A stretch of 64,000 nt of DNA, from the NCBI RefSeq assembly GCF_003334815.1, contig NZ_QOWO01000005.1; one strand, 5' to 3'. The notes beneath the pieces were generated by a model. The model had not been told where the DNA came from. It did not search any database and saw only the letters and a list, made by a program, of their open reading frames with translations. Both the position numbers and the translations under genes were made by a program. Below, piece by piece: positions 40,161 through 43,182 of the stretch. Origin of the DNA: Escherichia coli (GTDB lineage Bacteria; Pseudomonadota; Gammaproteobacteria; Enterobacterales; Enterobacteriaceae). Position 1 is the first letter of the stretch; every line of letters starts with the position of its first letter.

Positions 40161-41480
40161 TTAGTGAGCGCTGGAGGTCACCTGACGACCTGCCGCGCGA
40201 TCCCAGATAATGGCCAGAACCACCATCACCACTGTTGGCATTAACCACGCCAGACCTTGTTCGGCCAGCGGTAAACGCTGCGCCCAGGACGGTAAGATAT
40301 CGCTGAATGCAGATGCTTTGATCCCGTCGAGAATACCAAAAAGCAGGCTGATAAACATCGGCGGAGCAATCACGCGGGACGAATTATGCCACCATGAGCG
40401 TGTAAAACTTAATACAACCAGTGCGATACACGGCGGATAAATAGCGGTCAGCACCGGTACGGAGATCTGGATCAGCTGGCTTAAGCCGAGGTTAGAAACC
40501 ACCATCGAGAAGCCGCCGAGGATAAACACCAGCGTACGATAAGAGAGCGGTACGTACTGGGCAAAGAATTCTGCACAAGCACAGGTCAGGCCAACTGCCG
40601 TTACCAGGCAGGCGATGAAGATTAACGCCGCCAGCAGGAAGCTACCGCCGCCGCCAAAGGTGTGCTGAACGTAAGCATGCAGAATAGCAGCGCCGTTTGC
40701 AGACTGATCGACCAGCGACGCGCTGTCTGACCCCAGACGGAACAGCGCCAGGTACAGCAGAGTCAGACCAACACCCGCCATCAGGCCAGCCCAGACGGTA
40801 TAACGGGTCAGCAGACGCGCTTCGGTAACGCCACGAGAACGCGCCGCGTTAACAATAACGATACCAAACACCATTGCGCCCAGCGTATCCATGGTCAGAT
40901 AGCCGTTAACGAAGCCGTTAGAAAACGCAGCGTTTTGATAAGCCTCAGTCGCCGTGCTGATAGAACCCGCCGGCCAGACAATAGCGGCAACAGACAGGAT
41001 GACCAGCGCGATAATTTTCAGCGGCGCAAGGAAGTTGCCCACGGTATCCAGCAGCTTGCCCGGATAGAGCGAAACCAGAATAACGATAGCGAAATAGACC
41101 AGGCTGTAGATAAACAGCGGCAGCGCGGAATCACCCGTCAGCGGCGCAATCCCCACTTCAAAGGAAACGGTAGCTGTACGCGGCGTAGCGAAAAGCGGCC
41201 CCACCGCCAGGTAACAAACCGTTGCCAGCAGTACGCCAGCGACTTTACCGATTGGCGTGCTGAGGCTGTCAACACCGCCGCCAACTTTTGCCAGCGCCAC
41301 TACCGTTAATACCGGCAGGCCAACGGCAGTAATGAGGAAGCCGAATGCCGCAGTCCAGACGTGTTCGCCTGCCTGTAAGCCGACCATTGGAGGGAAAATA
41401 ATGTTACCTGCGCCGACGAACAACGCAAATGTCATAAAGCCCAGAGCGATGATATCGCGCGATCTTAATTGATGGGTCAT
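40161..41480 (-). CDS. brnQ: BrnQ branched-chain amino acid transport system II carrier
   Basis: 439-aa polytopic [37 protein letters not shown]. Confidence 0.96.
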
Positions 41481-41830
41481 AAATCATACTGCCTGTGGAT
41501 GTGGTGTTGTAACGTTAAATTTTTGTGCCAATCCCTGGGGATGATACAGCGGTATATTTAAACAATTTTAGCGGGAAATACTCCCAACCAGGCGCGGCGA
41601 AGAATAGTTTTTCGATTTACCGCGTTAATGCAGTCAGTATGACAGCACCTGAAGCGCAATTTAAACGCTTATAACGTTTTAAAGCAAGGAGGGATCTAAA
41701 AACCAGAGGTATATAGCGATAAGAAATCACCAACCAGTATAAAACACTATTTCCGTGAAAAAGACATGGCTAATCATGCGAACAAAAAATCACCAACCGT
41801 TGTAAAATCTAACGCCCGTATTTTGACTGC

Positions 41831-41860
41831 AAAGAAAATAAGCCAGCATCGACTGGCTTA
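41831..41860 (-). terminator. Intrinsic terminator after phoR
   Basis: AAGCCAG-catcga-CTGGCTT stem with A-rich run on + (U-rich on minus), about 27 bp after phoR stop. Confidence 0.6.
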
Positions 41861-41886
41861 TGGCAATAAAAGATGACAAAGGCGGA

Positions 41887-43182
41887 TTAATCGCTGTTTT
41901 TGGCAATTAAACGTTCCGGGATAACAAAACTGAAACGTGTTCCTTTTCCTACTGTACTCTCAATATTCAGGCGACTTTCGTGATGATTCACAGCATGTTT
42001 CACGATCGCTAACCCTAATCCGCTACCGCCGGTTTGCCGGGAACGCGCTTTATCAACGCGATAAAAACGCTCGGTCAGGCGCGGAATATGCTCCGGTGCA
42101 ATGCCCGGTCCGTTATCTTCAACGCTAAATTCGGCACCGTGCGGCACTCGCTGCCAGCGTACGGTGATATGCGTGCCTTCCGGCGTATGATTCACGGCGT
42201 TATAGACCAGGTTCGAAATCGCACTGCGTAGCTGATTTTCGTTGCCAGACACCTTGAGGCCGTTATCTATCTCAAAGGTAAATGTCTGTTTTTTCTGACT
42301 CAGAGTCTGAGCCTCGCGCTCAACAACGCGCAGCATCATCGGCACATCAACCTTTTCATTGAGCAAATGCGTCGGTGCGGCTTCTATTTTCGACAGCGTC
42401 AGCAATTGCTTCACCAGTCCTTCCATCCGCTGGGTCTGCTCGCGCATGGTGTGCAACGCTTTTTCGCGTACCGCGCCTTCCAGCGGCTGCTCATTCATCA
42501 TCTCCAGGTAACCCTGTAACACGGTCAATGGCGTACGTAACTCATGGCTCACGTTGGCAAAAAAGTTACGCCGCGCCCCTTCCAGTTGATGCATTTGCGT
42601 GACATCACGCGCCACCATCAGCAACTGTTTGTGGGTATAAGGCATGACGCGAATTTCCAGATGCCGCCCGGTGTTGAGCACCAGATTGAGCGGGCGAGAA
42701 AAATCACGCGTTTTCAGATATTGCGTAAACTCCGGGTAACGCAGTAGGTTAAGGATGTTCTGCCCGTTATCTTCCGGCCAGCGCAAACCAAGAATTTGTT
42801 GCGCCAGACCGTTACACCAGAAAATACCGCCCTCTTCCGTGGTCAGCACCACCGCGTCGGGCAGCGACTCCGCGCCGCTACGAAAGCGTTTAATCAGATT
42901 GCCCAGTTCACGGCGGCGTTTTTTATTTCGCAGCTGCATCTGGTGTAAGCCGTATAGTAGCGGTTCCCAGCTACCACGCCCCGGTGGCGGGGTCATACTG
43001 CGATCCACCCACAGCCACCATGAAAGGCGCAATAAATTCCAGAAATGCCAGATAAGCAGTCCTGTTACCGATGCCAGCAAAAACCAGGGCAGGTAACCAA
43101 AAAATGCACCCAGGATGAAAGCCGGGAGGCAGCAAAGTAGCAGCTCCAGCACCAGCCTTTTCCACGACAGCCGTTCCAGCAC
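41887..43182 (-). CDS. phoR: PhoR phosphate-regulon sensor histidine kinase
   Basis: 431-aa ORF; H-box [16 protein letters not shown] boxes ([16 protein letters not shown]). Confidence 0.97.

Follow-up and report, generated by a model that had tools for sequence, protein, structure and literature searches.

At ilvIH and pap, cooperative Lrp sites lie about three helical turns apart, and promoters with such Lrp arrays also include those of the LIV-I transporter genes livJ/livK. The region upstream of Escherichia coli brnQ, like livJ/livK an amino-acid transport gene, resembles these promoters in having several weak candidate Lrp matches upstream of a sigma-70 promoter, with box centres 31-32 bp apart, again about three helical turns. 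It differs from them in that the brnQ boxes are predicted from sequence, and from typical Lrp sites in that the box centred at -122 from the brnQ start lies in a much better conserved island. A further likeness is to the GcvB-repressed mRNAs (oppA, dppA, livJ, sstT, cycA and Salmonella brnQ), with which the brnQ message shares a C/A-rich stretch directly before the start codon. This second likeness concerns the 3' end of the leader (41487-41509) and not the two direct repeats in the same spacer, which lie upstream and would not be transcribed with brnQ.

In the window (the whole 64-kb stretch of DNA that was analysed) the genes phoB-phoR-brnQ-proY of E. coli all lie on the minus strand. The phoR-brnQ spacer, 41481-41886 (406 bp), is bounded by the stop of the phoR CDS (43182..41887, minus strand) and the start of the brnQ CDS (41480..40161, minus strand), and these coordinates bear out the gene context of the original prediction, which had described a 406-bp spacer upstream of brnQ-proY. 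The original prediction also knew of no annotated gene here. This agrees with MG1655, which has the same gene order and a 406-bp gap without annotated feature, and with the RefSeq complete E. coli genomes, where no feature lies under the match among the 30 genomes listed of the 5425 matching. An Rfam scan of 41300-42100 with E-values up to 10 returned a chance tmRNA fragment alone and no family match. Read on the minus strand, the spacer consists in order of the phoR terminator, about 150 bp of upstream regulatory DNA, a sigma-70 promoter and a structured leader of 172 nt. The stretch 41481-41886 is an ordinary, well conserved brnQ regulatory region. Taken jointly with the phased-box regulator model given below, the reading of the spacer as the entire control region of the minus-strand operon brnQ-proY is favoured by a small measure (probability roughly 0.55).

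For comparison a brnQ locus was collected from each of 80 GTDB species, which range from Escherichia to Buttiauxella and Cedecea, and 77 of these loci were aligned over the spacer together with the window sequence. A terminator scan located the intrinsic terminator of phoR at 41838..41861 (minus strand), a hairpin ATAAGCCAGTCGATGCTGGCTTAT with a T-rich tail behind it. Its stem is kept across genera with compensating changes, e.g. GCCAGC/GCTGGC versus ACCAGC/GCTGGT.

The primary start site of Salmonella brnQ was mapped by dRNA-seq, in agreement with primer-extension mapping from 1988 (PMC3293720 supplement). The Salmonella sequence from -50 to +1 is TTTTTAGATCCCATCTTGCTTTAAAACGTTATAAGCGTTTAAATTGCGCTT, in which sigma-70 -35 and -10 motifs are flagged, and the leader is 174 nt long (PMC3293720 supplement). 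E. coli 41702..41652 is almost identical to this 51-nt sequence, and the E. coli start, transferred from the Salmonella mapping, would lie at about 41652 on the minus strand (MG1655 419,419). The same near-identity marks a sigma-70 promoter block at 41659..41707 (minus strand), with the -35 element TTGCTT at 41687-41682 and the -10 element TTAAAT at 41664-41659, both on the minus strand. With a 17-nt spacer between the two elements and a start 7 nt past the -10 element, the arrangement is that of a sigma-70 promoter. Within the block lies a near-invariant TCTGGTTTTnnGATCCC (-55..-39, minus strand), and in the 17-nt promoter spacer a palindrome AAACG-N7-CGTTT (41679-41663, minus strand). Conservation runs from -62 to +5 and takes in ATA, TCTGGTTTT, GATCCC, the -35 element, the spacer palindrome, the -10 element and a GC-rich stretch before the start; between -35 and -10 the identity across the family is 95%. 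A consensus promoter scan of the spacer called no site, the brnQ promoter included, which this simple scanner missed because the -10 element has no A at position 2.

From the alignments the 5' leader of brnQ measures 172 nt and covers 41481-41652 on the minus strand including the start base (body 41481..41651). Parts of the leader are conserved across the aligned species, hairpins among them. A stem at 41592-41625 closes a conserved loop TAAATCGAAAAACTATTCTTCG and shows a UA/CG exchange in 8 of 29 sequences, and a hairpin of variable sequence is found at about 41520-41550 in most genera. RNAalifold returned almost no consensus structure for the leader (-1.56 kcal/mol), and covariation support for the helices drawn by hand is modest. 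Just upstream of the ATG, the CA-rich box CAACACCACATCCACAGGCAGTA (41487..41509, minus strand) is invariant in the alignment, and the last 25 nt of the leader form a CA-rich site of the GcvB type. PMC9299463 lists brnQ among the R1 targets of GcvB, with verification in Salmonella and conservation in E. coli. The CA-rich box fits this targeting and is likely to hold both the pairing site for GcvB R1 and the ribosome-binding site.

Upstream of the promoter, column frequencies in 77 species delimit a 43-bp island at 41757..41799 (-147..-105, minus strand) with the family consensus CGnYTGnTKnTTTTTTGTTCGCATGATTAGCCATRnSTTTTTC. The island is near-invariant in the 77 species, and many of its columns reach 1.7-2.0 bits. 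The sequence CATGATTAGCCATG belongs to this island, which also holds the imperfect palindrome CATGnnTAnnCATG. Spacing is conserved as well. The E. coli length is kept from -147 to -105 in 75 of 76 species and in all 76 for each of the segments -105..-62, -62..-35 and -35..-10, compared with 54 of 76 between the terminator and the island and 17 of 76 in the distal part of the leader, i.e. indels are frequent on the flanks. The stretch from -104 to -63 is only 50% identical to E. coli despite its fixed length. As judged from the alignment, about 140 bp of upstream DNA is held to a constant length even where its sequence varies freely, the pattern expected from a protein complex that depends on a constant helical register. 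Conservation of the island itself appears too tight for Lrp alone, and another factor may bind there.

Candidate boxes were sought with the Lrp SELEX consensus yAGhAwATTwTdCTr (quoted in PMC5554404), whose match score at every position of the alignment was averaged across the species. Three Lrp-consensus-like boxes stand out as sharp peaks, each at a single position, centred at -59 (41704..41718; family consensus YRG n ATAW nnn TCTG), at -90 (TAGTGTTTTATACTG; 41735..41749) and, inside the island, at -122 (TCGCATGATTAGCCA; 41767..41781). Their species-averaged scores are 11.5, 11.0 and 10.4 out of 15, respectively, over a background of 6.8 +/- 1.2, the averages being taken over phylogenetically related Enterobacteriaceae, i.e. 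over non-independent samples. A weaker peak (9.0/15 averaged) lies at -155 under copy 2 of the direct repeat. In E. coli itself the boxes at -90, -122 and -59 score 13/15, 11/15 and 10/15. Box spacings are 31 and 32 bp, and the length between boxes is invariant in 76 of 76 species. The summed score of the phased triple is 32.8, compared with 27.2 +/- 0.9 for column-permuted patterns, none of which reached it in 2000. The peaks persist with Escherichia and Citrobacter left out, and two of them, at -59 and -90, are found again with another Lrp consensus, AGAATwwwATTCT, whose top match is the -59 box (9.3/13). The stretch around -90 is variable except for the footprint T-R-G / AT-rich N9 / C-T-R, which persists. 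Taken by itself, the E. coli sequence gives no significant Lrp match, since 10% of shuffles equal its best score (13/15); the case for Lrp therefore rests on conservation and phasing. A motif-free autocorrelation of the profile gave its strongest offset at 87 bp, from a T-tract-rich TGnT..TTTT..G.TC at -142 and -55, and only z of about 1.9 at offset 31. The -122 box scores 10-11/15 within an island that is conserved far more tightly than the loose specificity of Lrp requires, a sign that some other factor acts there, besides Lrp or in its place. A passage of PMC4474525, citing Cho et al., says that Lrp affects brnQ-proY. Conservation, phasing and this one literature statement would make Lrp the best candidate for an upstream regulator of brnQ, with a chance of about one half.

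Consensus sequences of other regulators were likewise scored against shuffles. Among those scored, Lrp, which the original prediction had named first for a motif search, was the sole consensus with signal above the controls. For CRP, NtrC, Nac, IHF, PhoB, TyrR, ArgR, MetR, PurR, sigma-54 and GcvA (CTAAT) the spacer scored no better than shuffles, and the suggestion of NtrC did not survive, its best match (8/13) being reached by 86% of shuffles. A Fis site was rejected: the match at 41794-41780 is 9/9, but 12% of shuffles equal it and the -3 A is not conserved. Likewise rejected was an NtrC enhancer with the palindrome TGCACC-N5-TGGTGCA upstream of a GG-N10-GC sigma-54 promoter, for which the one sigma-54-like element, TGGCAC-N5-TTTAA (41530-41515), is confined to Escherichia and has no -12 GC. 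The literature search for other regulators at the phoR-brnQ spacer gave one item alone, a gSELEX peak of the RpoN holoenzyme that adjoins the brnQ start (PMC8743547).

The direct repeat was characterised by a repeat search. Copy 1, AAGAAATCACCAACCAGTATAAAA, lies at 41721-41744 (-92..-69 from the brnQ start) and copy 2, AAAAAATCACCAACCGTTGTAAAA, at 41784-41807 (-155..-132); the two are identical at 20 of 24 bases, share the 12-nt exact core AAATCACCAACC and are spaced 63 bp from start to start. When the spacer was shuffled 1000 times with dinucleotides preserved, the best direct match over 24 nt had a mean of 15.9 and a maximum of 19, so that none reached 20, and a 12-nt exact repeat arose in 1.2% of spacer shuffles. 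The repeat that had been reported from inspection of the sequence is real by this measure (20/24 identity, reached in 0 of 1000 shuffles); its positions had been given 1-4 bases off and its spacing as about 62 rather than 63 bp. The core 12-mer occurs exactly twice in the 64-kb window, where 0.39 matches are expected with one mismatch allowed, and a 96-mer spanning both copies occurs at one place per genome. Confined to two copies in 64 kb, the 12-mer is therefore not a dispersed repeat family, and a dispersed extragenic repeat (REP/BIME, ERIC) was rejected on that count and for want of any Rfam family. Both copies lie downstream of the phoR terminator and by homology would be untranscribed upstream promoter DNA.

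Identity between the copies, out of 24, is 20 in this strain, 19 in K-12, 17 in E. albertii and two other Escherichia species, 10-14 in Citrobacter and 3-13 in other genera, i.e. at background level. In the 77-locus alignment the copies fall mostly outside the conserved islands. Copy 1 sits in a stretch of variable sequence but fixed length, about 50% identical to E. coli, and its first 10 nt are overlapped by the -90 box. Copy 2 runs from the weak -155 box into the island, its 3' half overlapping the island's 5' edge; outside Escherichia it survives where it overlaps that edge and not elsewhere. On this comparison the repeat is a young similarity found in Escherichia only and its identical core is not the conserved element; the GGTTGGTGATTT core, from the same alignment, is a similarity particular to the lineage and has no separate conserved role. 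The proposal that the copies are paired regulator sites for the brnQ promoter stands in so far as the DNA is upstream-regulatory, but not for two equivalent operators. The copies are not conserved as a pair, their identity dropping from 20/24 through 17/24 to background beyond Citrobacter; the conserved Lrp-like boxes do not take in the identical 12-mer; and copy 1 alone overlaps a conserved box (-90), copy 2 overlapping a different and better conserved island.

Within the species the 96-mer is found in 5424 of 5426 genomes, and the 63-bp deletion, at about 1 in 5425, is therefore very rare. It was found in strain A39 (complete genome) as a clean deletion of 63 bp with its junction inside the 12-nt core, one hybrid copy being kept and the island being absent; this loss is a recombination between the copies. 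The brnQ repeat is in this respect like the short direct repeats that are substrates for replication slippage or RecA-independent deletion, A39 having lost exactly one 63-bp period. It differs from them in that the deletion is a consequence of the brnQ repeat and not its function. In at least 147 genomes, strain 042 among them, both copies have T changed to C at their homologous position (41792 and 41729), compared with 5 and 2 genomes that have the change in one copy alone. By a rough estimate, the same change at two homologous repeat positions, with about 4 differences in 406 bp, is about a 1-in-1000 event. Inter-copy copying, a mutational hotspot or co-selection could each explain it.

The 36-codon ORF of the original prediction is present at 41766-41876 on the plus strand with the translation given, its start falling at MG1655 419,305, and it does run through the phoR terminator hairpin at 41838-41861. 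Coding had been doubted from the outset, and the conservation check sides with that doubt. Measured from the aligned ATG, frame length lies anywhere between 3 and 58 codons, and about 18 of 77 species have another codon in place of the ATG. Between E. coli and E. albertii the ORF has 16 nucleotide differences, with 10 nonsynonymous versus 4 synonymous codon changes (codon positions 2/8/6); a second Escherichia comparison gave 9 versus 2 (codon positions 5/6/3), and one sister Escherichia species has a frameshift. Neither a third-position excess nor any codon-position bias is present in the Escherichia comparisons. The sequence before the ATG (GAAAAAGAC) contains no Shine-Dalgarno motif, in keeping with the poor one noted earlier, and the promoter scan and start-site data place no plus-strand promoter or start site near the ORF. 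Some GenBank submissions label it 'hypothetical protein'; RefSeq carries no annotation among the 30 genomes listed of 5425. In being short, without ribosome-binding site, not conserved and labelled in this way in some submissions, it is like the spurious intergenic ORFs of gene finders, and unlike them its first 8 codons (MANHANKK, 24 bases) look conserved. They do so because they overlap, as the reverse complement of the island, a conserved DNA element of the opposite strand's regulatory region. The ORF is, by these comparisons, a chance frame beginning in the conserved island and not a gene. For a small lysine-rich protein there speak an ATG start, a frame open in E. coli and the GenBank labels; with a frame of such unstable length and start, mostly nonsynonymous change, a frameshift in a sister species, a terminator hairpin in its path, no RefSeq annotation and neither ribosome-binding site nor known plus-strand promoter, that reading is extremely improbable.

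On the sense strand, a leader peptide from the ATG at 41777 (MISHVFFTEIVFYTGW) was rejected, as it lies upstream of the brnQ start site. Frames that end in the repeats (..FYTGW-stop, ..FYNGW-stop; RFYNGW in copy 2) were rejected on the same ground. Further grounds are that the short sense-strand frames differ in length between species (7 to 53 codons), that some 20 species have no start codon for them and that they lack codon periodicity.

The mechanism that we propose is that a multimeric, DNA-wrapping regulator, most likely Lrp, would bind the phased weak boxes at -59, -90 and -122, with a weak fourth near -155, and that in its bound state it would set the activity of the brnQ promoter. With a spacing of 31-32 bp the boxes would lie on one face of the helix, and a wrapped regulator would explain the constant length from -147 to -10 while half of the sequence drifts. 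The 63-bp spacing of the repeat in E. coli equals two box periods. The shared TAG / TTTTAYA / CNG part of the copies may reflect box-type sequence, and the GGTTGGTGATTT core does serve as a substrate for repeat-mediated deletion. As a whole this phased-box model, with its inferred mechanism, is slightly more probable than its negation.

A tentative alternative, less likely than not, is that the repeat is a neutral by-product with no function of its own, either a small duplication in decay or the product of chance convergence within T-rich upstream DNA, which a couple of substitutions or short-patch template switching sharpened in E. coli. The steady fall of copy identity with phylogenetic distance fits such an origin, as do the 19/24 in K-12, the existence of a strain with a single hybrid copy and the inferred ancestral copy 2, which reads ACGTCTGGTGATTT, the E. 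coli GGTTGG having come from lineage-specific changes. The same T-to-C change in both copies of at least 147 genomes likewise fits inter-copy copying. However, the DNA around the repeat is strictly constrained in length, one of the conserved boxes is overlapped by copy 1 and the 63-bp deletion is seen in about one genome in 5425. On the 12-mer core the neutral explanation agrees with the phased-box model, the conflict between them being limited to the box-like halves of the copies. It is unlikely that the copies are paired operators for one E. coli regulator other than Lrp (NtrC, Nac, ArgP, CRP or an uncharacterised one), each bound by one dimer six helical turns apart. The 63-bp spacing does equal six turns, the repeat is statistically non-random in E. 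coli and at a plausible distance for an upstream activator, the concerted T-to-C polymorphism could reflect co-selection, and an RpoN-holoenzyme gSELEX peak lies beside the brnQ start (PMC8743547). Set against this, conservation of the shared core already fails among Escherichia species, and matches to NtrC, Nac, CRP, PhoB, TyrR, ArgR, MetR, PurR and IHF are no better than in shuffles. In addition, the NtrC half-site resemblance TGGTGA has no palindromic partner, and the sigma-54-like TGGCAC-N5-TTTAA, whose distance to the ATG is 35 bp, occurs in Escherichia only and has no GC at -12.

It is also possible, with odds well below even, that the 43-bp island and neither the repeats nor the Lrp-like boxes is the key element, a dedicated transcription factor bound there contacting the promoter complex at a fixed distance. 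Near-invariance in 77 species, with 1.7-2.0 bits in many columns, goes beyond the need of a degenerate Lrp site, and the imperfect palindrome CATGnnTAnnCATG and the distance to the promoter, constant in all Enterobacteriaceae genera sampled, point the same way. On the other hand, no known consensus among those scored matches the island, its core is in phase with the boxes at -90 and -59, and one natural strain does without it. The island as key element is compatible with the phased-box model. A more specific version, that the island is the platform of a dedicated regulator of branched-chain amino-acid uptake and that the repeats co-evolve, as in the T-to-C change, since both contact this factor, would be a long shot on the present alignment.

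No nucleotide-level account of brnQ transcriptional control was found in the literature searched. The general view of how such promoters work is left unchanged by these results. The analysis drops an ORF that is spurious, and what it finds conserved is something other than the conspicuous repeat. E. coli has two importers of branched-chain amino acids, of which brnQ (LIV-II) is one, and the upstream region of brnQ can now be mapped as a promoter, three phased candidate Lrp boxes, a deeply conserved island and a structured leader with a GcvB-type site. This map offers concrete mutations to those who work on Lrp and on amino-acid uptake.

The two repeat copies upstream of brnQ (41721-41744 and 41784-41807, minus-strand positions -92 to -69 and -155 to -132 from the brnQ start; 20/24 identical and 63 bp apart) are both a site of deletion and a site of paired sequence change. 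In E. coli A39 (locus L084, NZ_CP028737.1), in the region equivalent to window 41724-41798, 63 bp are cleanly deleted, with a junction that falls within the 12-nt core identical between the copies. A single hybrid copy remains, and the deletion takes out the island at -147 to -105 (41757-41799) that is conserved throughout the family. Its frequency is approximately 1 in 5425 complete E. coli genomes.

A substitution also involves both copies. Window 41792 in copy 2 and 41729 in copy 1 are homologous positions, and at least 147 genomes of E. coli, strain 042 among them, carry one and the same T-to-C change, from GGTTGGTGATTT to GGTTGGCGATTT, at both. The change in one copy alone is rare (5 and 2 genomes), which suggests copying between the copies, a mutational hotspot or co-selection. 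Copy 2 also differs between strains at window 41797, G here and A in K-12 MG1655, so that copy 2 of K-12 reads CGATTGGTGATTT and repeat identity in K-12 is 19/24. The window does not come from K-12.

In 37 of 76 Enterobacteriaceae species the sense frame from ATG 41777 (41690-41777, minus strand) runs without a stop up to the -35 region; for the remaining five frames the figure is 1-18 of 76. No codon-position periodicity is seen in this sense frame, and the start codon is missing in about 20 species.

In the brnQ promoter, a near-invariant palindrome, AAACG-N7-CGTTT (41663-41679, minus strand), takes up the spacer that separates the -35 element from the -10 element, and a GC-rich stretch, TGCGCYYC, lies upstream of the start. 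Read counts at the Salmonella start site are low, 3 in wild type versus 12 in a ppGpp-null strain (PMC3293720). The 172-nt leader (41481-41652, minus strand) is strongly conserved. It contains a near-invariant loop, TAAATCGAAAAACTATTCTTCG, closed by a stem at 41592-41625, as well as a hairpin with a GGGA/TCCC stem and, upstream of the CA-rich box (41487-41509), another hairpin whose sequence varies, all on the minus strand. Covariation support for these structures is modest, and no Rfam family matches the leader. Going by older MG1655 numbering, an RpoN-holoenzyme gSELEX peak presumably lies near the brnQ start. A sigma-54-like TGGCAC-N5-TTTAA element at 41515-41530 (minus strand), 35 nt upstream of the brnQ ATG, is without the -12 GC and is confined to Escherichia. 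The gSELEX peak was assigned to the phoR-brnQ spacer (PMC8743547).

At the phoR end, a REP/BIME-type array of palindromic units, approximately 740 bp long, is inserted at the terminator in Escherichia sp. MOD1-EC7003 (L004, locus 1390-2130, equivalent to window ~41850; units GCCTGATGCGCTACGCTTATCAGGCCTAC... and TGTAGGCCGGATAAGGCGTTCACGCCGCATCCGGCA), and a terminator hairpin is re-formed beyond it. Downstream of the phoR stop codon and ahead of the terminator hairpin, a TGTCA-N7/8-CTTTCCA motif (41860-41878; TGTCATCTTTTATTGCCA in E. coli) is kept across genera. Its spacing does not fit a Pho box; it could be a conserved piece of the phoR 3' UTR.
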